Assembly (NCBI GenBank): GCA_048941285.1
Contig: JBHLNS010000015.1
Location: 1-21,752 of the forward strand
Length of the DNA: 21,752 nucleotides
Direction of reading: 5' to 3'
Origin: Promethearchaeota archaeon
GTDB taxonomy: Archaea; Asgardarchaeota; Lokiarchaeia; Sigyniarchaeales; SOKP01
The notes below the pieces were generated by a model. The model had not been told where the DNA came from and did no database searches. It saw nothing but the letters and a program-made list of their open reading frames with translations. Positions 18-19,898 of this stretch are shown here, one piece after another. A program made the position numbers and the translations under genes. Each line of letters begins with the position of its first letter. Position 1 is the stretch's first letter.

Positions 18-1232
18 ATGAATATTCTCGTTCTTCAAGAAACTGATTGGCTTACACGAGGACCAAATACCCAACACCATGTTTTTGAGAGAATCTCCAA
101 AGACAATAATATCAATATTACTGTTCTTGATTACGATATTGATAGGTTAATGCGTTCTAAATCCATATTAATAAAAAAGTGTCAATATTCTAATATTCAT
201 CGGACAATAGATAATTCAAGAGTAAAAATTATTCGAACTGCTCATATTCAAGTTCCATATCTTAGGAGAATATCCTCATTAATTACTAACTTTTTTGAAA
301 TGCTTAAACTGTTAAGGATAAATAGACCAGATATTATTATAGGATTTTCCTTAACAAATGGTATAATTGGTTTATTTTTATCCAAGTTATATAGAATCCC
401 CTATGTCTTTTATTATATAGATAAGCTTCACACTTTAGTGCCAATTCATTTTGTTAGAAAAATTGCTTTATTTTTTTCACAAATTTTATTTAGGTATTCA
501 GATAAAGTCATAGTTGTGACGAAATCGCTTCAAAATTATGTTTTGAATCAAGGTGTCAAAATAGAAAAGGTGAAAATTCTATTAAATGGAGTTTCTTTAG
601 AAAACACAATTGTAAATAGGAACAAGCTTGAAAATTTAAAGATAAAATATTCAATAAAAGAAGATGATTTTGTTCTTTTTTTTATGGGATATTTTTATGA
701 TTTCGCCGGACTAAAAGAGATTATTGACTATTACAATATAAAGATACTCAATACTACATTAAAATTTAAGTTTATACTAGTAGGGGACGGAGGAATTTAT
801 AATCAATTAATTAAGCACTGTGAAAAAATTAAAGCAGATTGGGTAATCTTTACAGGAAGAATTCCTTTTTTTGAAATAACCGAATATATTGAATTAGCTG
901 ATTTATGTCTCATGAGTTTTGATTTGAATGATATAACTAGAGAAATAACTCCTGTGAAGATTATGGAATATTTAGCCATGAAAAAACCAGTATTATCTAA
1001 TAGTTTACCTGGGGTTATGAATGAGATTGGAAAGGATAATGGAGTAATTTATGCCAAAAATCAAATAGATCTTATAAAAAAAATTGAACTATTAAGCCTA
1101 AACAGAGAGAAATTGCGAGAAATCGGTCAAGAAGGTTTTAAATTAATAAAAAAATATTATACATGGCCAAATATATTGCATGATTTTAAGCAAATTTTAT
1201 TTAGTCTCATAAAATTAAAAAGAAAATCTTAA
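18..1232 (+). CDS. GT4-family (GT-B fold) glycosyltransferase
   Basis: N-terminal MNILVL; RPDIII; 'ILLNGVS'; 'LFFMGYFYDFAGL'; 'ILVGDG'; 'FTGRIP'; 'PVKIMEYLAMKKPVLS'; C-terminal 'YYTWPNI', all typical of GT4. Its stop overlaps the stop of the convergent sulfotransferase (TTAA at 1229-1232). Confidence 0.9.
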   Translation: MNILVLQETDWLTRGPNTQHHVFERISKDNNINITVLDYDIDRLMRSKSILIKKCQYSNIHRTIDNSRVKIIRTAHIQVPYLRRISSLITNFFEMLKLLRINRPDIIIGFSLTNGIIGLFLSKLYRIPYVFYYIDKLHTLVPIHFVRKIALFFSQILFRYSDKVIVVTKSLQNYVLNQGVKIEKVKILLNGVSLENTIVNRNKLENLKIKYSIKEDDFVLFFMGYFYDFAGLKEIIDYYNIKILNTTLKFKFILVGDGGIYNQLIKHCEKIKADWVIFTGRIPFFEITEYIELADLCLMSFDLNDITREITPVKIMEYLAMKKPVLSNSLPGVMNEIGKDNGVIYAKNQIDLIKKIELLSLNREKLREIGQEGFKLIKKYYTWPNILHDFKQILFSLIKLKRKS

Positions 1233-2098
1233 TCATCTAATTTCCATTCAGTTAAATCCTTTCCTATTAATTTTTCTAATTCTAGAATATCTTCCCTATA
1301 TTTTAGATATAATTCTTGTCTTAATTTGGGGCTCAATTTTTCTTTTCCTCGTTTACTATTTGATAATTCAAAAAGTTTTTTAAATCGTTTAAGGTTTGAT
1401 GAGATTAAGTATAAATCTTTTGAAACAAGGAAATCATTAATTTTATTAGCAAACTTGTATCCCTGAGTATATAATCCATGGAATCTGGGAATCTCAGAAG
1501 AGTGAATTTTACTCGTTATTTTAGTTTTATCTAATAGGTTATAGTTTATCTTTAAAAAATCCGTAATTTGCCTTAACGCTTCAAATTTATCACTCATCAG
1601 TTCTTCAAAAACAAATATCAGAAACTGTTCTTTGGGAAAATACTCAAACCATCTTTTAAGGTGTTGTGAATAAAATCCAATTTTGTATGCTCGGTCTCTC
1701 TTCTTTAAGAAATCTATAAAAGAATCCTTTATATTTAAAATCAATTTATTATAAGTGTATTCAGAAAAAGCTCTATTTACAGGATTTCTAAGAAACAGTA
1801 TTATACTAATTTTAGGGAGAACATGTGCAATACGAAGTGGAGCGTCTTTTTCATGAAAGTATTGAGGAGAAATGTCTCCTATTGCTCTATATGACGATTT
1901 TCTTGAACCAACAAAAAATTGTTTATACCAATTCAATCCTTTATGATAATTTTCGCTAAAGAAATTAATTTCTTTTAAATGTGGATATAAATAAATTTCT
2001 GGATGATTTTTTAACAATTCATATAACCAAGTAGTACCACTTCTTTCGGCTCCAATACATAAAAAATTTGGTAGTCCTTGAATATGATTTATTGACAA
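1229..2098 (-). CDS. PAPS-dependent sulfotransferase (carbohydrate sulfotransferase-like P-loop fold)
   Basis: 5'-PSB motif 'PNFLCIGAERSGTTWLY', 'KEINFF', 'GDISPQY', 3'-PB motif 'LRNPVNRAFSEY', and 'GFYSQHLKRW..FP.EQ'. The TTG start is uncertain. Confidence 0.9.
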   Translation of the reverse strand: MSINHIQGLPNFLCIGAERSGTTWLYELLKNHPEIYLYPHLKEINFFSENYHKGLNWYKQFFVGSRKSSYRAIGDISPQYFHEKDAPLRIAHVLPKISIILFLRNPVNRAFSEYTYNKLILNIKDSFIDFLKKRDRAYKIGFYSQHLKRWFEYFPKEQFLIFVFEELMSDKFEALRQITDFLKINYNLLDKTKITSKIHSSEIPRFHGLYTQGYKFANKINDFLVSKDLYLISSNLKRFKKLFELSNSKRGKEKLSPKLRQELYLKYREDILELEKLIGKDLTEWKLDD

Positions 2099-2307: not shown

Positions 2308-3858
2308 TTGGATTTAGAAAGAAAACCTAACAACCTAGAATTTAAAATGAGGAACAAACAAGAGGCATTCAAGAGTTTTTTTATAATTTCAATCTCTTTG
2401 ATCATAGCATTTGTTTCAAATTTATTAATTGTTTTAATATTAACACATAATTTTCCTCCTGGAGAATATGCAGTTTATCAGTTTTCTTTAACATTTTTAA
2501 CTTTTTTTACAATTTTTTCAAATATAGGATTAAGCACAACAATAATTCAACAATTATCGGCTGAAAAAGATAAAGATCATCATAAGCTTGTTAGATTATT
2601 CTCAGAAGGATTAAAATGGATTATCCTATTCACATTAATATTTTCATTAATACTCTTTTTTTCTGCAGATTTCTTCGAAATATTCTATCAATTGCCTGGT
2701 TTAGGTATTGTACTTAAGTTTACTTCCTTAATTTTAATTTCAAACAATATTGTCAATTATTTCGAAAGTATTTTTCAGGGTTTATGGAAGTTTAAACTTT
2801 TCGCTATTTCATTTATCTTCTCTAAAGTGATAAAAGTAGTTATTGTGAGTCTAATCTTTATCATCGATATGTCATTACCTCAAATTATCGCTTTATTTTC
2901 CATTGCTCTGTTAATTCAATTAATTGTAATTTTAGGATTTTCTCAAATAAAGTATCGGTATCTATCTTCCTTTTTTAGTTTTAACCGAGAGCTATCGAGA
3001 ACACTGTTAAAATTTTCAATTTTTATTTTTTTATACGTCTTTTTTCAAAATGTAATAACATACTCAAATCAATTTATTTTAGCTGCTTTTGTTATTCCTG
3101 CTGAAATTGCTCACTATACTATTGTTCAATGGATGATTGTTAGTTTCTCGATCCCAGCAATAATTTTTTCAAGATTTATACTACCTTATGTATCCCATTA
3201 TATACAGAAAGTTGAAGAAGAACGAGGCAAAATTCAAACAATTTATAATTTGATTTTTAGGTATGGCTTATTATTAACTATACCAATATCATTTTATTTT
3301 CTAATTTTCTCAGATCCATTGATCGCATTGATGTTTGACCCTAGTTATTATCCTGTCTCGAATTATCTTAAGTTGTATATATTTTTTTTGAATATAAATA
3401 TAATTGATGTAGCTGGGGGCCATTTCTTATGGGCGTCTAATGAACCAAAGCTTGTATATAAACTTTATGCGGTCACCTCTTTTTTCACACTCACAATGAG
3501 CTTTATCTTAATCCCAATTCTTTATACATTAGGTGCAATACTATCTATTATGATTCCACATTCGATCTATACAATATATTCTATTTTTCTGGTAAAAAGG
3601 AAAAATAAAATAGAATTTGACTCAAATTTGTTACCTACTATATTTAAATATATAATTTCAGCGTTTTCGGTTATGATATTACTGTATGTAATTAATTTAA
3701 TTTTTCAATTTAACCTAAATAATATATTAATTTTACTTACTTTTTCAGGAATCTATTTTGGAATATTCCTTATTATGATCTTGTTATTAAGAGGAGTTAC
3801 TTTAATGGAAATTAAAGATTTCATTAAATTACTCAGAAATTCAATTTTTAAGAATTAA
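2308..3858 (+). CDS. Wzx/MOP-superfamily oligosaccharide flippase (polysaccharide export protein)
   Basis: About 500 aa with many hydrophobic helices; 'L..GEYAVY', 'FSNIGLSTTII', 'ESIFQG', 'ILPYVS', 'PIL..LGA' patterns; lies next to a glycosyltransferase. The real start is probably the ATG at 2347 rather than the TTG at 2308. Confidence 0.85.
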   Translation: MDLERKPNNLEFKMRNKQEAFKSFFIISISLIIAFVSNLLIVLILTHNFPPGEYAVYQFSLTFLTFFTIFSNIGLSTTIIQQLSAEKDKDHHKLVRLFSEGLKWIILFTLIFSLILFFSADFFEIFYQLPGLGIVLKFTSLILISNNIVNYFESIFQGLWKFKLFAISFIFSKVIKVVIVSLIFIIDMSLPQIIALFSIALLIQLIVILGFSQIKYRYLSSFFSFNRELSRTLLKFSIFIFLYVFFQNVITYSNQFILAAFVIPAEIAHYTIVQWMIVSFSIPAIIFSRFILPYVSHYIQKVEEERGKIQTIYNLIFRYGLLLTIPISFYFLIFSDPLIALMFDPSYYPVSNYLKLYIFFLNINIIDVAGGHFLWASNEPKLVYKLYAVTSFFTLTMSFILIPILYTLGAILSIMIPHSIYTIYSIFLVKRKNKIEFDSNLLPTIFKYIISAFSVMILLYVINLIFQFNLNNILILLTFSGIYFGIFLIMILLLRGVTLMEIKDFIKLLRNSIFKN

Positions 3859-4026: not shown

Positions 4027-5691
4027 GTGATTTTTATGGATCGACAAAGAATATTACAGGAAGCTCAAAAAATAGCAAAAAAATATTCATTTTGGATGGT
4101 TTCTGGTGATATAACACATTTATATGGTTATCTTTATGAAACTGCCGGAAAAAAATACGAACTCGAAATTAAATTCAAAGATAAATTTCCAAATTCTCCC
4201 CCACACATGATTTATCATGATGAGATAAATAATTTATTAGGTAATTTTCAGTTAAGTAATCTGACCAATTGGACACCAAACTCTACTGTAGTTGATATTG
4301 TTGATGAACTTCACTCTAAAATTCAAAATGCTCTCGAAAGTACAGAAAAAATACCAGAAGAAATATCATTTGAAAGGGAGAAAGAATCTGTGGAGGAGGT
4401 ATCTCTTGAAAAAGAAGAATATATTACTCCCGATCTAAATGCTTATCCTCCTGATTTTCAATACGATAAATCTTTAGCTCCTTCTGAATCTACTAATGAT
4501 TTATTTTTTACTGAAAATTCATCAATTTATCCCTCCAAAGATCTTGATTCAATTGATCATTCCAAAATATATACTGAGCAAGAAATAATTGAAGAGAATG
4601 AACAATTAGGGGTTTTAATCAATACTGAATTGAGTTTAATTCAACAAGAATATGCCTATGATCAATCTGACACTGGGGGTGCAGTTATTAATGTTTATAT
4701 TACTATAACTCTCACAAAAACTTTTATAATTACTATTGATCTCATGAATTATCCAGAAAAGCCAATTATTATTTTTCCAGATGAGATAAAGAACATAATT
4801 GGAGATCCTTATAAAACCATAGATTTATTAAGAAATTGGGATGCAAAAAAACCTTCACATATAATAGATATCTTGCACAAATTAGAAAAGAAACTATTAT
4901 TCATAAAGGAAATTGAGACCCAATCAAAAAAAATATCTGGAGAATATCAATGTAAAGATGTGCCTAATAGCTTAACAAAATTAAAAATTATCTTACTAAC
5001 ATATGGATTTAAGGAATATTTTTTAGATATTGATCTAGAACCTTATCCTAATCCTCCAAAAATTGGATTAGATTCGGAATTGCAAGAAATCGTTAAAAAA
5101 CCTGTTGAAGAATTAAATATTTATAAGAATTGGATAAAGAATGAAACAGAACCAGTTGAAATTGTGAGAGAAATCTCTTGGTTAGTTGATAAGAATTCAA
5201 GAATTAATTTTGAGATTGATTTATTGAAAGATCATTACAAGAATATAAAATTTGACTCATTGACAGCAACTTTACAGATTGAAATGAGAGGTAAGATGAA
5301 AACAGAAGATCTCACTTTTAATTTTCAGATTAATTTACCAAATGAATATCCTATGAAAATGCCTGACGTGAAAGTAATAAATGAATTTGAACTTGAAGCT
5401 CATGAAAAAATAAAGAATGATTTACACGCATCTTTTAAAGATTTCTTTGAAGAATGGACACCATTTAGTTATCTCGTTGATTTATTTAACTTAATTTCTA
5501 AAAAAATCTTTGAAGTATCAGTAGTCTCATGTGTTATATGCCATAAAATTGAATGCCCAAGTTGTACAAAAAAAATTGCTGGAGAAGATAATTGCCATAC
5601 AGAATGTCCCCATTGTAGTCGAGCTTATCATAATCACTGTTGGGAACAGACCATTAAATCATTTGGAAAATGTGGTTTTTGTTTAAGGTAA
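4027..5691 (+). CDS. Multi-UEV/RWD (E2-fold) domain protein with C-terminal RING finger; putative E3 ubiquitin ligase
   Basis: Four repeats of a beta-strand + [FY]PxxP(P) ... W + amphipathic helix pattern (FPNSPP/NWTP, YPEKP/NWD, YPNPP/NWI, YPMKMP/EWTP). Acidic linker at about aa 105-195. The C-terminal 53 aa hold 10 Cys and 5 His. The start may be the ATG at 4036. Confidence 0.75.
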   Translation: MIFMDRQRILQEAQKIAKKYSFWMVSGDITHLYGYLYETAGKKYELEIKFKDKFPNSPPHMIYHDEINNLLGNFQLSNLTNWTPNSTVVDIVDELHSKIQNALESTEKIPEEISFEREKESVEEVSLEKEEYITPDLNAYPPDFQYDKSLAPSESTNDLFFTENSSIYPSKDLDSIDHSKIYTEQEIIEENEQLGVLINTELSLIQQEYAYDQSDTGGAVINVYITITLTKTFIITIDLMNYPEKPIIIFPDEIKNIIGDPYKTIDLLRNWDAKKPSHIIDILHKLEKKLLFIKEIETQSKKISGEYQCKDVPNSLTKLKIILLTYGFKEYFLDIDLEPYPNPPKIGLDSELQEIVKKPVEELNIYKNWIKNETEPVEIVREISWLVDKNSRINFEIDLLKDHYKNIKFDSLTATLQIEMRGKMKTEDLTFNFQINLPNEYPMKMPDVKVINEFELEAHEKIKNDLHASFKDFFEEWTPFSYLVDLFNLISKKIFEVSVVSCVICHKIECPSCTKKIAGEDNCHTECPHCSRAYHNHCWEQTIKSFGKCGFCLR

Positions 5692-5995: not shown

Positions 5996-8900
5996 ATGGT
6001 TTTCGTGGAAGAATTGGATAAAAATCTGAATTTAACTGATCTAGAAGAAAGGATACTAGATTTTTGGAAGCATAAAGATATATATTCATTAATTAGGAAA
6101 AAAGAAGAAGGAAAGCAAATTTGGCGGTTTATTGATGGCCCTCCTTATACAACGGGATCCATTCATTTAGGAACAGCATGGAATAAGATTTTAAAAGATT
6201 ATTTAATTAAGTATAAACGGATGAGGGGATTTAAAGTGACAGATACCCCGGGTTATGATACTCATGGATTACCAATCGAAGTTCAAATGGAAAAGGAACT
6301 AGGTATTAAGAACAAACAAGAGATTCAAGAATATGGAATGGATAAATTTATTATGAATTGTAAGGAGTTTGCTTTAAAAAATTTAGCAATAATGAACGAT
6401 CAATTTAAAAGATTAGGCTGTTACTTCTGGGATTGGGACAATCCGTATATAACATTCAGAAATAGCTATATTGAGGGAATCTGGTGGACTTTAAAAAAGG
6501 CTTGGGAAAACAATCTACTCTATAAATTTTATCGGCCTCTGAACTGTTGTCCTCGCTGTGCAACAGCTTTAGCAAAACATGAGCACGAGTATAAAAACAT
6601 TAAGGATACAAGTTTATTCTTAAAAATAAAATCTGAAGATATGGAAGATACATATTTTATTATTTGGACTACAACACCTTGGACATTAGTAGCTAATTCT
6701 GCGATAATGGTAAATCCAATTGCAGAGTATGCTAAGGTATATATAGAAGATCTAAATGAATATTGGATATTATCAAAAAATTCAATAACTCATTTAATCT
6801 CAGGGGAATTAGGTTATAAATACAAAATCATAGAAGATTATCTTGGGGAAGAATTAGAAGGAAAAAAATATATACATCCATTATTAAATGAGGTTCCCTA
6901 CCAAAAAGAATTTGCAAAAAAAAGTGAAAAAATTCATTCAATAATCCTTTCTGAAGAATATGTTTCAGCATCAGAAGGCGTTGGTTTAGTACATACTGCA
7001 CCTGGACATGGACCCGAAGATTTCGAAGTCGGTGTAGCGAATGGTATCCCCATATTCAATCCAGTTAATATTAGAGGAATATATAAAAAAGAAGCAGGTA
7101 AATTCGAGGGAATGAATGTTTTTGATGCCAATAAAATAATATTAGATATATTAAAGAAAAATGGAATGCTCATTTTTACTAATGAAATCGAACACGAATA
7201 CGCACATTGCTGGAGATGTGATTCAAAACTGGTTTATAGGGCTACTAATCAATGGTTCTTTAAAACAGAAAGCTTAATCCCAAAATTACTTGAAAAAAAT
7301 GAAGAAATATACTGGATACCTGATTGGGCAGGAAGTAGATGGTTTAAAAGTTGGCTAACGACTTTGAAAGATTGGTGTATCTCAAGACAACGTTTTTGGG
7401 GTATTCCTTTAAGTGTTTGGACATGTGATAATGAAGAATGTGAAAATATTATAGTAATTGGATCGGGAAAAGAATTAAAAGATATCGCGGGAGAATGTCC
7501 TGAAGATTTACATAGACCTTGGATTGATCAGGTAACTTGGAAATGCAAAAAATGTAATAAGGGAACTATGAGAAGAATTCCTGATATTTTAGATGTATGG
7601 TTAGATTCTGGATCTGTTATGTGGGCCGCTCAAGAAATTTATGATGGAGAAAGTCATTATGATACTTGGATACCAGCAGATTTCATAATTGAAGGAAAAG
7701 ATCAAATCAGAGGATGGTTTAATAGTTTATTAAATAGTGCTATGGTATCTTCAGGTCGTAAGAATTATGATGCATGCTATATGCATGGTTGGGTCTTAAT
7801 GGAAAAAGCCAAAATGAGTAAATCAAAAGGTACAGTCATAAATCCTGAAGATATAATAGAGGGCACAATTCCAGAATTACAGAAAAAGAAATCTTTTTCT
7901 AATATTAAAGGAGCTGAAACATTTCGATTTTATTGCATAGGGGTGACTCAACCTGGACGAGATTTTAATTTTAATCTTAAAGAATATACTGATACTTACA
8001 AAATTATTAATACAATATGGAATGTTTATGTTTATGCAAATGAAAAGTTTAATTTAGCTGAATTTGATCCTAAACAGGTCAAATTAGATTTTGATAAGAT
8101 CAGTAAATTAGATAAATGGATAATTTCAAGACTAAATTCTACTATTAAGAAGATAACAAAATTATCAGATGAATATCAACTTCCTTGGATTACTGGCGAG
8201 TTAAGAGATTTAATTGTAAATGATATAAGCAGATGGTACATAATGCTGAATCGGGAAAAACTCGATATATATTCAGAAGATCCTAATAAATTATCAATTA
8301 TGGCAGTTCTCTATCATGTGTTATATAAGGTTTTATTGTTGTTAGCACCAATTAACCCGATGTTAAGCGAAGAAATTTTTCTAAAGATGTATAAATCTCA
8401 CGTAAAATCAATTGGTTTTGAAGAAACAGATACTATTCACTTACAAGATTGGCCTAAATATGATGAGAAGATGATTCAATTAGAATTAGAGGAACAAATG
8501 CATTTTACAAGAGAATTAATAGAAATTATTCGAGCGATAAAAGATGAAAATAGAATAAGATTAAGGTGGCCAAATAAAAAAATAATTATAGAAACAAAAG
8601 AGGACATGCCAAAAATAGAATTTCCTGAAATCATTAAGAAAGTTGGAAACGTTAGAGAACTAGTGATAGTAAAATCAGTTAAACCGTCAAAAAACTTAAT
8701 TAAGGCTGAATCTAGATTCTGTAACGTTTACTTAGATATATCTATTGATGATGATCTTTTATCTGAGCGAATAATAAATGATTTAATAAGAAATATACAA
8801 TTTATCCGAAAAAGCCATGGATATAAGATTGAAGACAAAATAACATTAAAGATAGGAACTAAAACAGAATACTTAAAAGATCTTCTTGATAAAAATCAAA

Positions 8901-9142
8901 GCACAATTATAGAAAAAATAAATGTTAAAAACCTTGATATCCTCTCAGATGACCTTTCTGAAGAAAAAAGTAAAATTTTTGGTTATTTGAATATATGTCC
9001 AAATAGAGATTGTTCTGCTGCTTTAAAAGATAATATAATTTCTAAATTAAGGAAAAACCTTGAAATAAAATGTCCACATTGTGAATCTAAAATAACTAAA
9101 GATACTATTAAAAAAATTAAATTTATTTTTAATAGAATATAA
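5996..9142 (+). CDS. ileS: Isoleucine--tRNA ligase, archaeal/eukaryotic type
   Basis: 'FIDGPPYTTGSIHLGTAWNK' (HIGH variant), 'PGYDTHGLPIE', editing domain 'IWTTTPWTL' and 'GVGLVHTAPGHG', 'DWCISRQRFWG', 'EGKDQIRGWF', 'KMSKS'. Confidence 0.97.
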   Translation: MVFVEELDKNLNLTDLEERILDFWKHKDIYSLIRKKEEGKQIWRFIDGPPYTTGSIHLGTAWNKILKDYLIKYKRMRGFKVTDTPGYDTHGLPIEVQMEKELGIKNKQEIQEYGMDKFIMNCKEFALKNLAIMNDQFKRLGCYFWDWDNPYITFRNSYIEGIWWTLKKAWENNLLYKFYRPLNCCPRCATALAKHEHEYKNIKDTSLFLKIKSEDMEDTYFIIWTTTPWTLVANSAIMVNPIAEYAKVYIEDLNEYWILSKNSITHLISGELGYKYKIIEDYLGEELEGKKYIHPLLNEVPYQKEFAKKSEKIHSIILSEEYVSASEGVGLVHTAPGHGPEDFEVGVANGIPIFNPVNIRGIYKKEAGKFEGMNVFDANKIILDILKKNGMLIFTNEIEHEYAHCWRCDSKLVYRATNQWFFKTESLIPKLLEKNEEIYWIPDWAGSRWFKSWLTTLKDWCISRQRFWGIPLSVWTCDNEECENIIVIGSGKELKDIAGECPEDLHRPWIDQVTWKCKKCNKGTMRRIPDILDVWLDSGSVMWAAQEIYDGESHYDTWIPADFIIEGKDQIRGWFNSLLNSAMVSSGRKNYDACYMHGWVLMEKAKMSKSKGTVINPEDIIEGTIPELQKKKSFSNIKGAETFRFYCIGVTQPGRDFNFNLKEYTDTYKIINTIWNVYVYANEKFNLAEFDPKQVKLDFDKISKLDKWIISRLNSTIKKITKLSDEYQLPWITGELRDLIVNDISRWYIMLNREKLDIYSEDPNKLSIMAVLYHVLYKVLLLLAPINPMLSEEIFLKMYKSHVKSIGFEETDTIHLQDWPKYDEKMIQLELEEQMHFTRELIEIIRAIKDENRIRLRWPNKKIIIETKEDMPKIEFPEIIKKVGNVRELVIVKSVKPSKNLIKAESRFCNVYLDISIDDDLLSERIINDLIRNIQFIRKSHGYKIEDKITLKIGTKTEYLKDLLDKNQSTIIEKINVKNLDILSDDLSEEKSKIFGYLNICPNRDCSAALKDNIISKLRKNLEIKCPHCESKITKDTIKKIKFIFNRI

Positions 9143-9151
9143 TTCTAAAAT

Positions 9152-10204
9152 TTAAATTTCTGAAAATCCGTATTTTTTATAATAATCTAACCAATAAATA
9201 AACATGTCCCTCAGAGTTTCCTCTATGGGAGTAGAAATTTCCCATCCTAGTTCATTTTTTATCTTTGAATTATCACCTAGAATAACATCCTCATCGGTCC
9301 TTCTCAACTTATTGCTAACATTTTCCTTTACTTCTATTTTTTTTAAAGAAAAACTTAAAGCGATATTTAAAATTTGGCGAATTTGAAGCTTTTTACTTGA
9401 GCAAATATTATAAGTTTCTCCAGGAGTTCCCATTGTTGTTGCTAACCAAATTGCTTTAATTGAGTCTTTTATCCCCGTATAATCTCGATAAGGCTCAAGA
9501 TTTCCCACCTCTATTATGGGTTCTGACAAACCTAATTCGACTTGCGCCACTTTTCTAATAAAATCTGAAGTTGCATCTCCCCTTCTTCTAGGGCCTGTTT
9601 GATTAAAAAATCTAAGATTGATAACCTTAATTCCAAAATTAACAAAATATTGACGAGCAAGTAATTCAGCTGCAACTTTACTAATTCCATAAGGATGTAT
9701 GGCTAGTAATGGATCAGATTCTTTTAATGGTCTGTTTAGCAATGTTGTTGTTCCATATTCTGCACTAGTACAAGCAACTATAACTTTAGTTTTAATATTT
9801 TGTTTTTTGATCGCTTCGAATACGTTAATTGTCCCTACTACATTAGTTTCTATAGTATCCACAGGATTTTCCCATGAAGGTATAACTAATGGTTGTGCTG
9901 CAAAATGAAATAGAAATTTAGGTTTAATTTTTGTAATAATTTTTTCTAATAGTTGAGCATTTTTAATGTCACATTCAAATATACGCAATTGTTTATTATT
10001 AGTCGGGATTTCAATTTTTTGATTGAAAATTGCTTTCTTGTCTTTTTCAGCGAATTTTAATTTTTCATTTGTATAGTGAGATAAATTTCTATAAATTTGA
10101 TTTGGTCTTTCTATAGCATATACCATATAATTTTTTTCGATACATAAATCAGTTAGATGTGACCCTAAAAAGCCATTTGCCCCAGTAATGAGTATCTCTT
10201 TCAT
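9152..10204 (-). CDS. GDP-mannose 4,6-dehydratase-family SDR (GDP-sugar dehydratase or reductase; possibly acts on GDP-heptose)
   Basis: 'ITGANGFLGSHL', 'HFAAQPLVIPSWENPVDT', 'CTSAEYG', YxxxK 'PYGISK', 'RFFNQTGPRR', 'VGNLEPYRDY'. The substrate is inferred from context only. Confidence 0.8.
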   Translation of the reverse strand: MKEILITGANGFLGSHLTDLCIEKNYMVYAIERPNQIYRNLSHYTNEKLKFAEKDKKAIFNQKIEIPTNNKQLRIFECDIKNAQLLEKIITKIKPKFLFHFAAQPLVIPSWENPVDTIETNVVGTINVFEAIKKQNIKTKVIVACTSAEYGTTTLLNRPLKESDPLLAIHPYGISKVAAELLARQYFVNFGIKVINLRFFNQTGPRRRGDATSDFIRKVAQVELGLSEPIIEVGNLEPYRDYTGIKDSIKAIWLATTMGTPGETYNICSSKKLQIRQILNIALSFSLKKIEVKENVSNKLRRTDEDVILGDNSKIKNELGWEISTPIEETLRDMFIYWLDYYKKYGFSEI

Positions 10205-10235
10205 TTTGAATCACTAATATGTTCAATTTAAATTT

Positions 10236-11369
10236 TTATTTTAATAGACCTTTTTCTTTTAATTCTAATATTGCCTTATCGGATAATTCTTGGATGCCTT
10301 CGTGTTTAATTTTGATCCATTCTATTAATTCATTTATTCCTTCTGTAAAAACAACCGTTGGTAAATAACCTAACTTACTTTTTATTTTAGAAATGTCTGC
10401 AACACAATGCCTAATATCACCAACTCTAAATTGATGATTATAGATCGGCTTTAATTTGGGATTTAGCTTTTTGGAAATTATTTCAGCAACTTCTTTTATT
10501 GTAATTGGAGTGCCTGTACCAACATTAAAAACCTCACCATTTGCGGCAGTTTTTTCCATAGCAAGAATTAAAGCTTGACATACATCTTTTACATTTACAA
10601 AATCGCGTGTTTGATTTCCATCCTCATAAACTATTGGAGGTTTTCCATGAAGCGCTCTTGTACTAAATATTGAACAAACTCCCGTATAGGGGTTTGAAAG
10701 AGCTTGTCTTGTCCCATAAACTAAGAAAAATCTTAAAATTGTTGTATTAATTCCATACGTTTTACCTATCATAAGGCTCAGTTTTTCTTGCGCTTCTTTA
10801 GATAAGGCATATACTGAACTAGGATTCAATGGTGAATTCTCATCAGTTAATAAAGGTTTGACTTTAGATCTACACTCAGGACAATTAAGCTCCCAATCTT
10901 TATTCTTCAATTGATCTAAAGATCTTAATTTTGGGAAAATTATTCCACAATTATTACAATAAGATTTAGCTTCTCCATATACAGTATTAGATGATGCAAT
11001 AATAACTTTTTCAACATTATGTTCAGTATTTACTAAAATATCGAATAAGTTTGCTAATCCAATTATATTATTATTAAGGTATTTTTCTATTTGGTACATT
11101 GATTGTCCAACTCCAACACTTGCCGCCAAATGAAAAATAATCTCATGGTTTTTTACTAAATCTTCTAATTTTTTATAATCCGTTACAGACCCCAAAATGA
11201 ATTCAGAATCTTTATTTAAGTAGGAAGGAGGTTTACCAGATTTTCCATGGACTTGTTCTTCTAAATTATCAAGAATAGAAACTTCAATATTCTTTTGCTC
11301 TATTAACTTGTCAACTAAATGAGATCCAATAAAACCTGCTCCGCCCGTAATTAGTACTTTTTTTGGCAT
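10236..11369 (-). CDS. NAD-dependent NDP-sugar epimerase/dehydratase (extended SDR) with CxxC...CxxC insertion
   Basis: 'ITGGAGFIGSHL', 'HLAASVGVGQSMY', 'ASSNTVYGE', 'YALSK', 'YEDGNQTRDFVNVKD', 'RVGDIRH'. Confidence 0.88.
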   Translation of the reverse strand: MPKKVLITGGAGFIGSHLVDKLIEQKNIEVSILDNLEEQVHGKSGKPPSYLNKDSEFILGSVTDYKKLEDLVKNHEIIFHLAASVGVGQSMYQIEKYLNNNIIGLANLFDILVNTEHNVEKVIIASSNTVYGEAKSYCNNCGIIFPKLRSLDQLKNKDWELNCPECRSKVKPLLTDENSPLNPSSVYALSKEAQEKLSLMIGKTYGINTTILRFFLVYGTRQALSNPYTGVCSIFSTRALHGKPPIVYEDGNQTRDFVNVKDVCQALILAMEKTAANGEVFNVGTGTPITIKEVAEIISKKLNPKLKPIYNHQFRVGDIRHCVADISKIKSKLGYLPTVVFTEGINELIEWIKIKHEGIQELSDKAILELKEKGLLK

Positions 11370-11558: not shown

Positions 11559-12569
11559 ATGATAGTTCGTTCAAAAGCACCTTTTAGAGTTAGTTTTGGT
11601 GGCGGAGGAACAGATATGGCTCCATATTGTATTGAACATGGAGGATGTGTAATAAGTACCACTATAGACCGTCATATTTATATCTCTCTGAAACCAAGAA
11701 CAGATAAAAATGTAAATATATTTTCAAGTAATCTTAATGAAGAATTTCTTTTTGAAATTGGAGATACTGATTATTCCACAGAATTTGAATTATTTAAAGG
11801 GATTTTTAATGTTTTGGAAATAAAAGACGGATTTGATATTACATTTAATTCAGAACTTCCAGCAGGTTCAGGAATGGGGGGTTCTTCTTCCTTATCCGTA
11901 GCGTTAATAGGCGCTTTTAACATATATTATAAATTTGGTTATTCTAAATATGAAGTCGCTCAAAAAGCCTATGAGATTGAACGTAATGAGTTAAAACAGA
12001 AAGGAGGGTATCAAGATCAATTTGCTGCGGCTTATGGAGGTTTTAATTTTATTGAATTTTCGGAAAAAGTAAATGTTTTTCCTATAGTTACCAGCCAAGA
12101 AATGATAAATGAGCTCCAATTTCGTTTAATTTTATGTTATGTAGGAGGGTCTCATTTCTCCTCTAATATTCAAGATGAAGTATTAAAAGGTTACCATATT
12201 GAGAAAAAAAATTATCTTGAAGCCATGCAAGATTTAAAAGATGTTGCTCATTCTATAAAGAATATTGTAGAATCTAATAATTTAAATCAATTAAATGAAT
12301 TTGGTTATCTATTACATAAGGGATGGATTGCCAAAAAGAGTTTAAGCAGCAAAATATCCAACAGAAATATTGAAAATTTTTATCTAACTTCCAGAAAGTT
12401 TGGAGTTCTTGGAGGAAAATTATTAGGTGCAGGAGGAGGAGGACACCTATTACTTTTTTCAGATCCTTATAAGAAACATATTGTAATTCAAGAATTGGAA
12501 AAAATAGGTGGTGTAATTGTTAATTTTCATTTTAATCCAAAGGGACTTGAAGTATGGAAATTGATATAG
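11559..12569 (+). CDS. hddA: D-glycero-alpha-D-manno-heptose-7-phosphate kinase (GHMP kinase)
   Basis: 'MIVRSKAPFRVSFGGGGTDM..Y', GHMP motif 'LPAGSGMGGSSS', 'GGYQDQFAAAYGGFNFIEF', 'GGKLLGAGGGG'; adjacent to gmhA. Confidence 0.9.
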   Translation: MIVRSKAPFRVSFGGGGTDMAPYCIEHGGCVISTTIDRHIYISLKPRTDKNVNIFSSNLNEEFLFEIGDTDYSTEFELFKGIFNVLEIKDGFDITFNSELPAGSGMGGSSSLSVALIGAFNIYYKFGYSKYEVAQKAYEIERNELKQKGGYQDQFAAAYGGFNFIEFSEKVNVFPIVTSQEMINELQFRLILCYVGGSHFSSNIQDEVLKGYHIEKKNYLEAMQDLKDVAHSIKNIVESNNLNQLNEFGYLLHKGWIAKKSLSSKISNRNIENFYLTSRKFGVLGGKLLGAGGGGHLLLFSDPYKKHIVIQELEKIGGVIVNFHFNPKGLEVWKLI

Positions 12570-12601
12570 AATAAAATTAACATATTAAAAGAGATGACAA
12601 T

Positions 12602-13168
12602 ATGGAAAATGAAATCATTTCAATTTTAAATGAGAGTATTAAAGTTAAAGAAGGTATAAAAAATATAGCTCCTATTATAGCAGAAATTTCCAAAGAAATA
12701 GTAAAGGCATACAAAAAGAAGAAAAAAGTTGTACTCTTTGGCAATGGTGGAAGTGCGGCTGATGCACAACATATTGCTGCAGAATTTGTGGGAAAGTTTT
12801 ATAAGGATAGAGATTCACTCCCTTCATTAGCGTTTCACACTAATACTTCTGTGCTTACAGCAACTGCTAATGATTACGGTTATGATCTAGTATTTGAAAG
12901 ACAAGTGTCTGCATTTGTAGAGAAAGGAGATATTGCTATTGGAATTAGCACTTCTGGCAATTCACCAAATGTTATAAAAGGTTTAATAAAAGCAAAAGAG
13001 AAAGGAGGGGTAACTATAGGTTTTACTGGACAAAAGCAAAATAGAATAGAAAAAATAGTTGATCTTTGTTTAAAAATACCCTCAGCAGATACTCCACGAA
13101 TTCAAGAAGGACATATAACAGTAGGACATATTATTTGTTATTTAGTTGAGAAAGAACTTTTTGGGTAA
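12602..13168 (+). CDS. gmhA: Phosphoheptose (sedoheptulose-7-phosphate) isomerase
   Basis: 'FGNGGSAADAQHIAAEFVG', 'TATANDYGY', 'GISTSGNSPNV', 'TPRIQEGH'. Confidence 0.96.
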   Translation: MENEIISILNESIKVKEGIKNIAPIIAEISKEIVKAYKKKKKVVLFGNGGSAADAQHIAAEFVGKFYKDRDSLPSLAFHTNTSVLTATANDYGYDLVFERQVSAFVEKGDIAIGISTSGNSPNVIKGLIKAKEKGGVTIGFTGQKQNRIEKIVDLCLKIPSADTPRIQEGHITVGHIICYLVEKELFG

Positions 13169-13178
13169 TTATATATTT

Positions 13179-13814
13179 ATGAAAAAAGTCGCAGTTTCAA
13201 TTCATGCAAAAGAAGACTTTACAGTGGAAATTTTAAAGGAATTGGAAGGTTTCGATTACATTCATGTAGATTTAATGGATGGTACATTTGTTAATAATAA
13301 AAATAAAAATCTAGGTGTTTTTAAGAAAATAAAAGAAACTTATAATACCCCTGTGATTGCCCATTTAATGGTTGTAAATCCTTTCGATTATATTGACGAG
13401 ATTATTAACTTTATTGATATATTTTTATTTCATTTTGAAATTGAAGGCAAGAAGGATATAATCATAAAAAGAGTAAGAGATTTTCATAAAAAAGTTGGTA
13501 TTGCTATAAATCCAGACACAAATATTAATGAAATTATATCCCATCTTAAGAATATTGATCTTGTATTAGTAATGAGTGTTGAACCAGGTTGGTCAGGGCA
13601 GAATTTTTTAATCGATTCTATAGAAAAGGTAAATGCTTTAGCTCAATATAAAAAGAAATATGATTTTTTAATTGATATTGATGGTGGAGTTAATATATCA
13701 AATGCAAAACTATTAAAAAATACAGATATTTTAACAAGCTCAAGTGCTATTTTAAAAGCCGAGGATCCTAATAAAATTATTAAATTGCTTAAATTTTCTG
13801 ATGAAAATGAGTGA
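13179..13814 (+). CDS. rpe: Ribulose-phosphate 3-epimerase family protein
   Basis: 'IHVDLMDGTFV', 'HLMV..P', 'FHFE', 'VMSVEPGWSGQNF', 'IDGGVN'. Start placed at the ATG at 13179; the ORF track starts at an upstream TTG (13146) that overlaps gmhA. Confidence 0.88.
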   Translation: MKKVAVSIHAKEDFTVEILKELEGFDYIHVDLMDGTFVNNKNKNLGVFKKIKETYNTPVIAHLMVVNPFDYIDEIINFIDIFLFHFEIEGKKDIIIKRVRDFHKKVGIAINPDTNINEIISHLKNIDLVLVMSVEPGWSGQNFLIDSIEKVNALAQYKKKYDFLIDIDGGVNISNAKLLKNTDILTSSSAILKAEDPNKIIKLLKFSDENE

Positions 13815-14349
13815 AAAAAAAAAAGCAATCTTTCTAGATCGAGACGGAGTAATTAACAGAGAAGTCAATCATCTATCAAATCCAGATGATTTTGAGTTCA
13901 TTGAAGGATCAATTGAAGCTTTAAAGATCCTTAAACAAAAAGGATTCTTACTTATAATTATTACTAATCAAGCTGGGATAGCAAGGGGCATTTTTACAGA
14001 AGAAACCCTTATAAAAATTCATGATAAAATGATTGCAAGGTTAAAGCAAGATGAAATTGAATTGGATGAGATATATTATTGTCCACACCATCCTGACTTT
14101 ACCGGACCATGTAATTGTAGGAAGCCACATCCCGGAATGATATTAAAAGCTGAAATAAAATATGATATTGATTTAGCTAATTCATATTTTGTTGGAGATA
14201 CATTGAATGATATTCAAACAGGTAAAGCAGCAAATTGTAAAACTGTTTTAGTCTTAACAGGTTATGGTAAAGAGGAACAAAAAAATATTGGAGCTGTTAT
14301 ACCGGACATGATATTTAAAAACTTAAAAGAATTTGCCATAAATATATAA
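13801..14349 (+). CDS. gmhB: D-glycero-D-manno-heptose-1,7-bisphosphate 7-phosphatase (HAD)
   Basis: 'AIFLDRDGVIN', 'ITNQAGIARG', zinc motif 'CPHHP....CNCRKP.PGM', 'FVGD...DIQ'. Overlaps the rpe stop; the start is 13801 or 13807. Confidence 0.94.
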   Translation: MKMSEKKKAIFLDRDGVINREVNHLSNPDDFEFIEGSIEALKILKQKGFLLIIITNQAGIARGIFTEETLIKIHDKMIARLKQDEIELDEIYYCPHHPDFTGPCNCRKPHPGMILKAEIKYDIDLANSYFVGDTLNDIQTGKAANCKTVLVLTGYGKEEQKNIGAVIPDMIFKNLKEFAINI

Positions 14350-14392
14350 AACAAATAATTATTATAATCATCAAAATTGATCGTGAAGAAAT

Positions 14393-15049
14393 ATGAAATT
14401 TTTTATTGATACTGCAAATTTAGAACAAATCAAAGAAATGCAGGAACTTGGAATAATTGATGGGGTCACCACTAACCCGACACTTTTATCAAAAGAAGGG
14501 GTCGATCCTATAGAACAATTGAAAAAAATCTGTGAAATCGTTGACGGACCTGTGAGTGGGGAAGTCATAGGATTAACCACAGAAGAGATGATTAAGGAAG
14601 CTCGTGAATTAGCCAAGATTGCACCAAATTTAGTAATCAAGATTCCATTTACGAAAGATGGTATTAAAGCTGTAAAAATTCTTGAACCAGAAGGAATTAA
14701 AACGAATGTAACGCTTGTATTTTCACAGAATCAAGTCTTAATTGCCGCTAAAGCTGGAGCCTCATTTATAAGTCCTTTCATAGGAAGATTAATGGATAAT
14801 GGCCAGAATGAAATTGATTTTCTTTGGGAATCTATGGACATCCTAAATGCATACGATTTTAAATCTGAATTAATAGTAGCGTCTATAAGGAATACTCGGC
14901 ATGTTATTGAAGCTGCTAAAATAGGAGCACATATTGCTACAATCCCTTTTGCTGTACTTGAAAAAATGTTTAGACATCCAAACACCGATCAAGGCTTGGA
15001 AGCATTTCTAAAAGATTGGGAAAAATTACAAAGAGAATTAAGCAAATAA
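14393..15049 (+). CDS. tal: Transaldolase (short TalC/MipB-type)
   Basis: 'FFIDTAN', 'GVTTNPTLL', Schiff-base Lys in 'VIKIP', 'NVTLVFS'. Glu in 'VSGEV' and Phe in 'ISPFIGR' indicate transaldolase rather than fructose-6-phosphate aldolase (Gln/Tyr). Confidence 0.92.
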
Positions 15050-15058
15050 TTGAATAAT

Positions 15059-16057
15059 ATGGCTCTTATTGATGAAATTTCAAAATGGCATAATAAAAAA
15101 GTATTAGTTATTGGGGATGCTTTAATAGATAAGTATATTTTTGGTTACACCGATCGAATATCTCCAGATGCTCCTGTCCCAAATGTAAAAATAGAAAACA
15201 GCAATATTTATATTGGTGCAATTGGTTTAGTACTTCAATTTATACAGTCCTTGGGTGGAATTCCCGAAATTTGTACTATTATTGGAAATGATTTTGAAGG
15301 AGAATTTTTCTTAAGAAAAATAAATGAGCTAAAAATAGGCTCATCTGGTATTTTCATAGATGAGAAAATTAAAACTCCTCAAATAACGCGAATAAAAGCA
15401 ATGAATCAGCATTTATTAAGATTAGAAACAGATTATAATAGTGATATCTCTCAATCAATTAGAGAAAAATTCAAAAATTTAATAGGTACTAGTCCCCAAG
15501 ATATTGAAGCCATTTTAATTCTAGATTATGGATTAGGTGGTATTTTTAACGACCAATTTATTCGTAAACTATTAAATTTTTTAAAAGAGAAATATAAAAA
15601 AATACCCATAATTGCACGCCCCACAATATCAAACTATTATCTTTATGAAAATATAGAATTAATTAAAATGAATCTACAGAAAGCTTTAGATGCTTTTTCA
15701 ATTGATTGCTGCAATGAAACAAGCGTTATAATTGCTGGAAAAAGAATTTTAAATGCATCTAAGTCCAAAAATGTATTATTAAATTACTTAGAACTGGAAT
15801 CCTTTTTATTTTCAAAAGATAATGATAAAATAGATAAATTTCAGCCAATTTTACAGCAGCCAGTAAGAAGTTATGTAGCAGTTGGGAGCGTAGTTATGGC
15901 AATATTAGGATTATCTTATGCTGCTAAGATTTCAGTATTAAATGGAGTAAAACTTGCACTTTTTGCCGCTGCACTTACCGCAACTCTACCTCCTGTGGAA
16001 TTCTATAATCAAGAAAAACTCCGTAATTACATTTTAAATCAATCGATTAAATTATAA
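15059..16057 (+). CDS. RfaE/HldE kinase-domain-like PfkB protein with degenerate catalytic motifs (probable pseudokinase)
   Basis: 'VLVIGDALIDKY', 'RISPDAPVP', 'QHLLRLE' and 'LDYGLG' match HldE domain I, but DVTGAGD reads SYVAVGS. Start is the ATG at 15059 or the TTG at 15050. Confidence 0.8.
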   Translation: MALIDEISKWHNKKVLVIGDALIDKYIFGYTDRISPDAPVPNVKIENSNIYIGAIGLVLQFIQSLGGIPEICTIIGNDFEGEFFLRKINELKIGSSGIFIDEKIKTPQITRIKAMNQHLLRLETDYNSDISQSIREKFKNLIGTSPQDIEAILILDYGLGGIFNDQFIRKLLNFLKEKYKKIPIIARPTISNYYLYENIELIKMNLQKALDAFSIDCCNETSVIIAGKRILNASKSKNVLLNYLELESFLFSKDNDKIDKFQPILQQPVRSYVAVGSVVMAILGLSYAAKISVLNGVKLALFAAALTATLPPVEFYNQEKLRNYILNQSIKL

Positions 16058-16077
16058 TTACTATTTTATGTGATAGA

Positions 16078-16932
16078 ATGGAAATTTCTAAAGCAGATGA
16101 ACAAAAAGTCTTAGTTGATATTATAGATATCAAAAAAGATATATTAAAAATGATATATAAGGCTCAGTCGGGCCATCCAGGTGGTTCACTATCATGTGTT
16201 AATATTATTTATCTCCTTTACAGCAAGATTATGAGGATAAATTATCATAATCCTACTTGGAAAGAAAGAGATATATTTATATTAAGTAAGGGCCATGCAG
16301 CACCTGCCTTATATGCAGTTTTATCAAAATTTAATTTTATAAAGAGAGAGGAACTATTTACATTAAGAGAGTTTAATTCCAAAATACAAGGACATCCTGT
16401 TAAAAATCCGGAATTTGGAATTGAAATATCTACGGGATCTTTAGGAATGGGTTTATCTATAGGGGTTGGATGTGCTTTGTCTGCCAAAATTGATAATTCT
16501 GATAAAAAAATTTACGTTTTATTAGGAGATGGAGAGTTAAATGAAGGAGCAATATGGGAAGCTGCAATGTCTGCGAATCATTTTAAATTAGATAATTTAA
16601 TAGCAATAGTAGATCGTAATGGATTACAAATAGATGGATCAACAGAAGAAATAATGGCCTTAGAACCATTAGCAGAAAAGTGGAAAGCATTTGGTTGGGA
16701 AGTTATAGAAGTGGATGGATTAAATCCTAAGAATGTATTACAAGCATTTGAACGTGCCAAAAACATAATTGGAAAGCCAAAAGTGATCATATCTTACTTA
16801 ATTAAGGGATCTGAAGTATCGTTTATGCAGCATACTCGAGAATTTCATGGAAGGGCACCTAATGAAAAAGAATATGAAATTGCGCTTAAAGAGCTAGATA
16901 AGATTAAAGAAGAAGTATTAAGAGGGTATTAA
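16078..16932 (+). CDS. Transketolase, N-terminal (TPP-binding) subunit
   Basis: 'SGHPGGSLS', 'LSKGHAAP', 'GHP', 'TGSLGMG', TPP motif 'GDGELNEGAIWEA...DRNGLQIDG'. Confidence 0.93.
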   Translation: MEISKADEQKVLVDIIDIKKDILKMIYKAQSGHPGGSLSCVNIIYLLYSKIMRINYHNPTWKERDIFILSKGHAAPALYAVLSKFNFIKREELFTLREFNSKIQGHPVKNPEFGIEISTGSLGMGLSIGVGCALSAKIDNSDKKIYVLLGDGELNEGAIWEAAMSANHFKLDNLIAIVDRNGLQIDGSTEEIMALEPLAEKWKAFGWEVIEVDGLNPKNVLQAFERAKNIIGKPKVIISYLIKGSEVSFMQHTREFHGRAPNEKEYEIALKELDKIKEEVLRGY

Positions 16933-18440: not shown

Positions 18441-18462
18441 TTCTTTTCATTTAGCTTATTTT

Positions 18463-19863: not shown

Positions 19864-19898
19864 AAAATATTCTTTTTTATAAAATTGATTAAAAAAAA

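Follow-up and report, generated by a model that had tools for sequence, protein, structure and literature searches.

Four non-catalytic E2-fold domains and a RING-type zinc module in one Lokiarchaeial protein, a candidate single-chain ubiquitin ligase

Eukaryotes have many non-catalytic E2-fold domains, among them UEV, RWD, the kinetochore RWDs, FANCL, BRE and Mediator subunits. A 21,752-nucleotide stretch of DNA from a Promethearchaeota archaeon of the Lokiarchaeia (contig JBHLNS010000015.1 of assembly GCA_048941285.1, positions 1 to 21,752; hereafter the window) holds a gene (4036..5691, + strand) for a protein of 551 amino acids in which four UBC-fold domains are followed by a RING-type zinc module. 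What does such a chain do in an archaeon? Because the layout is otherwise known from eukaryotic ligases such as FANCL and listerin, the window protein is probably a ubiquitin ligase (E3). As far as sequences and structural models can tell, we think it likely that it is a single-chain RING E3 whose pseudo-E2 domains bind ubiquitin or substrate.

The protein is read from a single long open reading frame (ORF) on the + strand, 4027..5691, which gives 554 amino acids if its first codon is the GTG at 4027, which is in frame. A start at the ATG at 4036 is likelier. It yields 551 amino acids plus the stop codon, three residues fewer, and the database cluster with the identical protein (P0002) is also 551 amino acids long. 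The same methionine is the N-terminus in 32/35 aligned homologues; two of the other three have short N-terminal extensions and one is truncated at the N-terminus. Residue numbers below are those of the 551-residue form, so that numbers in the preliminary description of this DNA, which counted from the GTG, are reduced by 3. The motifs which that description listed in GTG numbering were all located where it had placed them: F54PNSPP, W82, Y242PEKP, W271, Y340PNPP, W369, Y441PMKMP, W477 and the ending YHNHCW...FGKCGFC. Since 323 homologues pass E<=1e-3, the idea that the ORF is due to chance or to a wrong frame was rejected. At least 120 homologues are listed at 58-100% identity, and the close ones carry source labels such as Promethearchaeota, Lokiarchaeota and similar names of metagenome-assembled genomes. 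Among 53 sequences, with identity down to 21%, there is no or almost no variation at the RING ligands or at the YP and W positions. Judged by the number of homologues and these invariant positions, the family is under purifying selection. No NCBIfam model covers it.

Of the four repeats, D1 (4036..4347, +, residues 1-104) has a UBC fold most like that of catalytic E2s and lacks the HPN motif and the catalytic Cys. After a linker follow D2 (4597..4920, +, residues 188-295; YPEKP, W268) and D3 (4921..5220, +, residues 296-395; YPNPP, W366), both non-catalytic and UBC-like. D3 forms a double-RWD-like pair with D4 (5221..5511, +, residues 396-492; YPMKMP, W474), which is an RWD-type UBC fold. Pfam UQ_con matched D1 at 42.6 bits against a cut-off of 27 (best stretch 40-101 in GTG numbering), RWD matched D4 at 22.1 bits where the cut-off is 22.8, and PF23009 ('UBC_like') reached 18.4 bits against a cut-off of 27 in the window protein. 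Across 53 family members, counted here and below at E<=0.01, RWD was found in 47/53, UQ_con in 46/53 and PF23009 in 31/53. BLAST between segments of the protein itself joined D2 to D3 (E 1e-7), D1 to D3 (3e-5) and D1 to D4 (8e-4). When the sub-alignments of the four domains were compared by hhalign, 6/6 pairs matched at 87.4-99.3% probability, the D1-D2 and D2-D3 pairs both at 99.3%. P240, P338 and P439 are invariant in the 53 sequences, and W268, W366 and W474 are conserved in at least 90% of them. Profiles were needed for relationships outside the family, as a phmmer search of the PDB with the single sequence gave only weak matches (E>=0.13).

Structural models led to the same picture. The AlphaFold model of residues 188-551 (364 amino acids, 41 sequences) has a mean predicted local distance difference test score (pLDDT) of 91.3 and a predicted template modelling score (pTM) of 0.74. 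The full-length model has a pLDDT of 79.3; D1 and the D2-D4-RING block are confident, and values below 50 occur only in residues 105-187. pLDDT is about 88-96 in D1 of the full-length model and 86-96 in D2 of the 364-residue model. Each domain is built of a helix, four strands and further helices. A VIA-align search, in which Foldseek was not used, covered 48,161 representative chains, of which 48 reached Z>=8. To judge from the titles, each of the 50 rows listed is an E2, UEV or RWD domain or a chain containing such a domain; examples are the SEA-complex chain 8adl_C (Z 11.7), RWDD1 (11.6), E2 E1 (11.5), the GCN2 RWD domain (10.9) and the Tsg101 UEV domain (10.0). D4 matched RWD domains (8adl_C, RWDD1, RNF25, GCN2) and E2s at Z 10-11.7, and D2 matched the BRE chain 6r8f_G at Z 8.0 over model residues 4-101. 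The D3-D4 pair superposed on the Knl1 double RWD (Z 10.6, 176 residues aligned) and on the central domain of FANCL (3zqs_B, Z 9.7, 178 residues aligned, root mean square deviation (rmsd) 7.2). The window protein is one chain with four homologous UBC-fold domains. The preliminary description had read four UBC/UEV/RWD repeats from the letters alone, and Pfam, BLAST, hhalign, the models, which fold UBC-like, and VIA-align all agree with it.

On alignment none of the four domains qualifies as a catalytic E2. When D1 was aligned to Rad6/Ubc2 chains, a gap stood in place of HPN and a Gln at the position of the catalytic Cys. In the homologues this column holds Q in 25 and E in 5, with D, K, H and V in one each and no Cys (the six commonest residues, covering 34/35 rows). 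D4 has a Phe at the Cys position of the same alignment. Outside the zinc module the only Cys column is residue 306, at the start of D3, where Cys is found in 29/35 close and 26/53 wider homologues. That the protein might be an active E2 was ruled out by the missing HPN in D1 and by the Gln and Phe that D1 and D4 have at the Cys position. The alignment and the homologue columns thus support the earlier statement that HPN and an active-site Cys are absent.

The C-terminal zinc module (5512..5688, +, residues 493-551) carries the residues C499 C502 / C507 C510 C520 / C524 C527 / H532 H534 C535 / C546 C549. They follow the pattern C-x2-C ... C-x2-C-x4-H-x2-C-x10-C-x2-C, to which a C-x2-C...C group and H534 are added. 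In 20 aligned modules, taken from the family and from unrelated architectures, 11 of these ligands are invariant, and the twelfth, at residue 534, is a His in 18 modules and a Cys in the other 2. The 12 conserved ligands therefore suggest three zinc sites. In the model the module consists of short strands and a helix at 533-543. When a profile of the module was searched by hmmsearch against all PDB sequences, the best matches were Arkadia (1.2e-4), RCHY1/Pirh2 (1.8e-4), RBX1 (3e-4), RNF165 (5e-4) and EL5 (9e-4), with weaker matches to RBX2 and APC11. Among the 29 matches listed at E<=1e-3 the sole non-RING protein is RPA12, a zinc ribbon. The profile of the whole protein also matched the RINGs of RCHY1 and RBX1. 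Aligned to profile positions 1-49, RBX1 coincides in its first Cys pair, its inserted Cys pair, its lone Cys and its H-x-H-C stretch. By analogy with the zinc sites of RBX1, the sites may be C499/C502/H532/C535, C524/C527/C546/C549 and C507/C510/C520/H534; because the alignment with plain two-zinc RINGs begins only at the second Cys pair, this exact assignment stays conditional. The preliminary description was right in placing a RING at the C-terminus, as the module matches RING fingers. It is not a plain C4HC3 finger: it has 12 ligands and is nearest to RING-H2 and RBX1 by profile.

The same 12-ligand module, at 55-61% identity, is found at the C-terminus of beta-helix/NosD and leucine-rich repeat (LRR) proteins (P0178, P0181, P0182, P0187, P0194, P0196). 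A substrate binder joined to a RING is the usual logic of an E3. The beta-helix/NosD and LRR proteins are likely, from their composition, to be further E3 ligases of the same lineage.

Several observations weigh against a ligase. No Pfam RING model reaches its cut-off in the window protein (Prok-RING_1 scores 14.2 bits against 29.1), and few family members are matched by such models (Prok-RING_1 9/53, zf-RING_2 4/53, zf-rbx1 1/53). The E-values of the PDB profile matches are modest (about 1e-4), and hhalign of the module against a relative's plain RING gave a probability of 48.6%. Features typical of E2-binding RINGs are only partly present, including the Ile of CVIC. Deviations are the Trp directly after C535, a last pair that reads CGFC and not CPxC, and a basic residue that stands two residues past the last Cys and not one. 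The gene adjoins no ubiquitin gene in its own genome. Finally BRE, a non-enzymatic scaffold, is among the top structural matches.

In a second explanation the protein is a non-catalytic ubiquitin-binding scaffold like BRE/BABAM2 in the BRISC and BRCA1-A deubiquitinase complexes. Its tandem UEV-like domains would serve to recognise ubiquitin chains or to anchor a JAB/MPN protease, with a zinc module that is only a structural or protein-binding finger. Foldseek placed BRE among the best matches of both models (6gvw_C, 9.2e-7 and 2.8e-6) and VIA-align matched the BRE chain 6h3c_C at Z 8.2 over 255 aligned residues. Pfam BRE was found in 5/53 members (best 1.9e-7), the only position seen being a partial match in the D1 region of P0123. 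A scaffold is also consistent with the loss of catalytic residues from all four domains, with the several JAB proteases of the genome and with the failure of Pfam RING models to reach cut-off. The zinc module argues otherwise, since its profile ranks E2-binding RING-H2 proteins and RBX1 ahead of other zinc fingers, and, in the manner of E3 RINGs, it stands at the end of beta-helix and LRR proteins. Furthermore, relatives of the protein adjoin E1 and E2 genes and not just JAB genes, and BRE is not known to have a RING. We regard the scaffold, the main rival of the ligase, as unlikely.

A RING ligase would depend on a ubiquitin system. Ubiquitin, E1 and E2 genes, which the preliminary description had proposed to look for in the genome, were all found, on contigs 41, 40 and 61. 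The genome is 94% complete and contains three E1/E2 sets, ubiquitin genes and several JAB proteases. Contig 41 (L029, 2-6548) holds a Ub-E1-E2-JAB cassette together with an ORF cut by the contig end; the cut ORF has no Pfam match and has a RING-like match at its C-terminal end. The E2 of this cassette retains HPN and Cys99 and was found in 40/41 genomes of the family. Beside the cassette are two genes with C-terminal ubiquitin domains (264 and 145 amino acids) and a winged helix-turn-helix regulator. Contig 40 carries JAB-E1-E2, and contig 61 an E2 and an E1. On contig 61 (L030:6891-9962:-) a 1023-residue MIT and TPR protein adjoins a 530-residue E1-like gene with a large insert, with an E2 near. 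The genome has four zf-RING_2 genes, and the RING subtype of the window protein occurs in it only once. The window itself has no ubiquitin, E1, E2 or ESCRT (endosomal sorting) gene among the 18 neighbouring ORFs scanned, as had been noted from the letters alone.

Relatives' loci are closer to ubiquitin genes. A shorter form of the protein in genome G237 is encoded directly upstream of an E1 gene. Two other short forms, in G237 and G294, which belong to different families (L068:4856-5950:- and L069:7174-8298:+), each have as their next gene on the same strand one for an orthologous protein (365-375 amino acids, 46% identity). This neighbour combines a helical N-terminal region with a zinc ribbon, a zf-RING_2 finger above cut-off and a second RING-like finger. 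Short form and double-RING neighbour may be a RING-RING partner pair. In family f21, a relative of 293 amino acids with one UBC-like domain and a RING is encoded between E1/E2 genes and another RING gene, with an AAA ATPase also in the group. The RING of a relative matches Pfam FANCL_C with E 1.2e-3, below cut-off. In family f24, a relative of 263 amino acids (G184, L089:3911-4702:-) lies between an E2-JAB pair and a Ub-E1 pair. It has no Pfam match and was detected only by the family profile, at positions of about 212-358.

We examined how widely the architecture is distributed. A search without length limit returned full-length forms at 41-56% identity, short forms at 23-32% and the zinc module alone at 55-61%. 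The short forms have about 350-460 amino acids, with a FANCL-size set of 365-429, and cover residues ~190-551, which are three domains and the RING. With the protein as query, 59 of 301 genomes of the Asgard phylum match at 1e-5. Near-full-length matches are confined to the window's own family (where 49/68 genomes have any match) and to a single genome from a sister family in the same order, and short forms extend to two further families of the same class. With the family profile 130 of the 301 genomes match at 1e-6, and the matches outside the class are partial: about 300 amino acids with one UBC-like domain and a RING in family f21, and about 265 amino acids in 20/21 genomes of family f24. 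Three or more UBC-like domains with a RING were found only in the window's own class. These genome counts are a sample, and many of the genomes are incomplete. One conserved family thus occurs in graded forms, with one, three or four UBC-like domains and a RING, some of them within E1/E2/Ub operons.

The order in which the domains were assembled was approached with an unrooted tree of 46 domain sequences (115 columns). Domains of P0054, P0144, P0153, P0157 and P0164, one E2 and both halves of the 263-residue relative were left out as long branches. Each domain position forms one group (D4 100/99, D3 93/86, D1 93/81, D2 69/37), and the domains of short forms group with domains at the same position in long forms. 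A split with support 91/90 separates D1, four catalytic E2s and one relative's UBC-like domain from D2-D4. A quick tree of 65 rows is less resolved and in agreement. Because of the position groups and the split that joins D1 to E2s, the tree is suggestive of D2-D3-D4-RING as the older core, with D1 as a later, E2-derived addition.

D1 and D2 are separated by an acidic linker of 83 residues (4348..4596, +, residues 105-187) with pLDDT below 50. Its length and sequence vary among 35 homologues, except for a linear motif at 4408..4458 (+, residues 125-141, EKEEYITPDLNAYPPDF) with the pattern EE[YF]ITPDLxxYPPD. E127 and E128 are each conserved in 33/35 homologues, Y/F129 in 35, T131 in 34, P132 in 35, D133 in 34, L134 in 32, Y137 in 34, P138 in 35, P139 in 32 and D140 in 31. 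In the full-length model the motif peptide is undocked and lies on none of the domains. Since it is a conserved peptide within a disordered linker, EE[YF]ITPDLxxYPPD suggests a docking motif.

Taken as a single-chain RING ligase for ubiquitin or a ubiquitin-like protein, the window protein could work as follows. A cross-brace RING, to which a third zinc site is added as in RBX1, would be formed by the zinc module, and it would dock a charged E2~Ub that the genome's own E1/E2 sets can supply. Recognition would fall to the four dead UBC-fold domains, binding ubiquitin, E2 or substrate as eukaryotic UEV and RWD domains do. D1 would be E2-derived, D2 and D3 a close pair, and D4 an RWD-type domain packed against the RING. 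At the linker motif a partner, or a domain of the protein itself, would dock. The UBC folds, the loss of catalytic residues, the RING-type ligands and profile matches, the E1/E2/Ub/JAB system and the ubiquitin operons of relatives are observed; from there we infer E2 binding, ligase activity, the ligands of the pseudo-E2 domains and the role of the motif.

The gene neighbourhood raises another possibility. The gene for isoleucyl-tRNA synthetase (IleRS; 5996-9142, +) is directly downstream on the same strand, after a gap of 304 bases. IleRS is also directly downstream in 8/11 loci of the same genus and 6/13 loci of other genera (survey loci L019, L020, L022-L026, L028, L070, L073-L078 and L080). 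In one genome of the same order IleRS is divergent, and in one genus (L077) its position is occupied by a different class-I synthetase, a paralogue with 31% identity to IleRS. The fetched flanks of 5/13 other-genus loci have no IleRS-like match, and one more locus has a match of 37% identity about 5 kb away. Eukaryotic RWD proteins cluster around translation: GCN2, RNF14, RNF25 and listerin. If the window protein were a translation-linked quality-control RWD-RING E3 that acts on ribosomes or translation factors, in the manner of listerin, RNF25 and RNF14, its lasting place beside IleRS would be explained. This would be a special case of a RING ligase. Consistent with it, D4 and the RING superpose on the RWD-RING unit of Ltn1 in ribosome-bound structures of ribosome-associated quality control, and PF23009, which a look-alike search lists on listerin fragments, is the Pfam model found in 31/53 members. 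On the other hand the synteny may be inheritance only, given the loci that lack an IleRS-like match and the 304-base gap, and the ribosome-binding N-terminal and HEAT parts of listerin are missing. We consider a role tied to translation quite improbable.

The other neighbours have to do with glycans, sulfation and the pentose-phosphate route. Around the gene are ATP sulfurylase, adenosine phosphosulfate (APS) kinase, a sulfotransferase, a glycosyltransferase, a polysaccharide flippase and two genes for nucleoside diphosphate (NDP)-sugar dehydratases/epimerases. These sulfation and glycan genes, at 17898-21047 (-), 1229-2098 (-), 18-1232 (+), 2308-3858 (+) and 9152-11369 (-), look like a sulfated-glycan cluster. 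A run at 11559-17862 (+) encodes a GHMP kinase, a SIS isomerase, ribulose-phosphate 3-epimerase, a HAD phosphatase, transaldolase and a transketolase split into N and C genes. Amid this pentose-phosphate run is an ORF of 335 amino acids (15050-16057) with no Pfam match. A defence system was also considered and rejected: PADLOC gave only a partial, generic 'E2' match on D4 (1.1e-6, positions 5-87 of 241), and there are no defence genes around.

Whatever its exact role, the family makes plain that chains of several pseudo-E2 domains, fused to a RING, exist in a Lokiarchaeia-type lineage. It offers a tractable system for the origin of RWD-RING ligases, for the ligands of pseudo-E2 domains in a minimal ubiquitin system, and for whether the FANCL/listerin plan was inherited or is convergent. 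Even a lineage-specific E3 would be a new archaeal E3 architecture, one that is mostly labelled 'hypothetical protein' in databases. A bolder proposal is that the RWD-RING ligases of eukaryotes (FANCL, listerin, RNF25) have their archaeal stem in the unit of a UBC-like domain and a RING. Duplication of domains in Asgard archaea would then have put together the FANCL-type plan, in which several pseudo-E2 folds feed one RING, before there were eukaryotes, and the long form beside IleRS would be a translation-linked quality-control ligase. As a whole this proposal is speculative, and we think it unlikely.

How close is the window protein to known systems? FANCL is built in the order E2-like fold, double RWD and C-terminal RING. 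In a Foldseek search of the PDB, FANCL was first for both models (9a0j_L, 1e-8 and 4.7e-9; 7kzp_L, 1.8e-8 and 9.7e-9). The alignments span 387-398 columns on chains of 370-373 residues and are colinear over nearly the whole chain. Next came BRE/BABAM2 6gvw_C, listerin/Ltn1 (9ofv_e and 8aaf_e, 1.5e-5) and the FANCL crystal structure 3k1l. FANCL and listerin are themselves RING E3s made with UBC-like domains, a point in favour of a ligase. VIA-align matched FANCL 7kzp_L at Z 9.4 over 305 residues, from 2-364 of the chain and 9-364 of the model. In FANCL (3K1L, 7KZP L, 9A0J L, 3ZQS), as in the window protein, a single chain carries three UBC-like folds ahead of a C-terminal RING, and the size and domain count of FANCL are those of the family's natural short forms. 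Domain order follows the FANCL plan in D2-D3-D4-RING as well as in the short forms, in both sets of colinear alignments.

Whole-chain template modelling (TM) scores are 0.24-0.26 with rmsd of 17-30 A (26 A for the top hit with the 364-residue model); in the models, fold order is common to the two proteins and packing is not. By Foldseek the double-RWD geometry is nearer to CENP-O and Knl1 (TMt 0.47-0.59) than to the central domain of FANCL (0.39). Pfam FANCL_d2, FANCL_d3 and FANCL_C matched 0/53 members. FANCL_d1 matched 2/53, best 2.1e-4 and below cut-off, and in P0123, the only position seen, the match is on D4 and not on the first domain. FANCL is absent from the 60 matches listed of each PDB profile search, with the whole protein and with the zinc module. 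The window protein is archaeal and also differs in having a fourth, E2-derived domain and an 83-residue disordered linker, in its inter-domain geometry, and in a RING with 12 ligands where FANCL has 8. After the family's own clusters, a language-model search for look-alikes listed FANCL at 0.84-0.86, then listerin fragments and RWD-plus-RING clusters; as the line of this tool is 0.9, all of these scores are below it and are leads only.

The FANCL-like architecture claimed in the preliminary description therefore stands in domain order, top structural match and colinearity; specific kinship is not supported, as the Pfam FANCL models and the TM scores speak against it and D4 with the RING matches the RWD-RING of listerin equally well. 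Its suggestion that a model be compared with FANCL, BRE and RWD structures gave FANCL first and BRE among the top matches. One might still propose that the protein is truly orthologous to the FANCL of eukaryotes, or its direct ancestor in the archaea, with a role in DNA-damage signalling. The first Foldseek rank, the colinearity over the whole chain, the FANCL-like domain count of the short forms (365-429 amino acids), the look-alike clusters and the sub-threshold FANCL_C match of a relative's RING would fit. Set against these are the Pfam and TM results, a double-RWD geometry nearer to CENP-O and Knl1, a RING with a third zinc site that is nearest to RING-H2 and RBX1, and the confinement of forms with three or more domains and a RING to the window's own class. 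We give orthology to FANCL very little credence.

Listerin/Ltn1 (8AAF e, 9OFV e, 9GY4 F) appears to share with the window protein an RWD-type domain packed directly on a C-terminal RING. D4 and the RING matched this C-terminal unit at VIA Z 8.9 over 148-149 residues with rmsd 6.1-6.7. Listerin differs in its size of about 1500-1700 residues, with N-terminal and HEAT ribosome-binding regions, whereas the rest of the window protein is three further UBC-like domains. No HEAT or long N-terminal region is present in the 551 residues, which comprise four UBC-like domains, linker and RING only. BRE/BABAM2 (6GVW C, 6H3C C) shares the chain of tandem non-catalytic UEV-like domains; it differs in having no known RING and in being a scaffold of a JAB/MPN deubiquitinase. 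RBX1 and the RING-H2 proteins (Arkadia, RCHY1/Pirh2, RNF165, EL5) are the best profile matches of the zinc module, which fits three zinc sites as in RBX1. RBX1 has C-x-H and Asp as the last ligand where the window protein has a C-x2-C pair and Cys, and the window module is fused to UBC-like domains and is not a cullin partner.

Ubiquitin systems that include RING E3s and non-catalytic UEV domains have already been described in archaea, according to the available text of PMC5654768, bioRxiv 10.1101/2023.07.25.550441 and PMC9192718. The accessible part of PMC6601020 credits Asgard archaea with several E2s, one Uev-like homologue and one RWD-like domain, and places FancL among atypical RWD/UBC-like proteins; it is the only literature match that joins Asgard archaea with FANCL or an RWD domain. 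We found no description of an Asgard protein with several UBC-like domains and a RING in the available literature, including the accessible portions of PMC6601020, PMC10936438, PMC9192718 and bioRxiv 10.1101/2023.07.25.550441. As far as these portions describe them, the archaeal E1/E2/small-RING cascades and the Asgard UEV-Vps23 proteins differ from the window protein in that their RINGs are small and single-domain and their UEV domain is single and fused to ESCRT-I parts.

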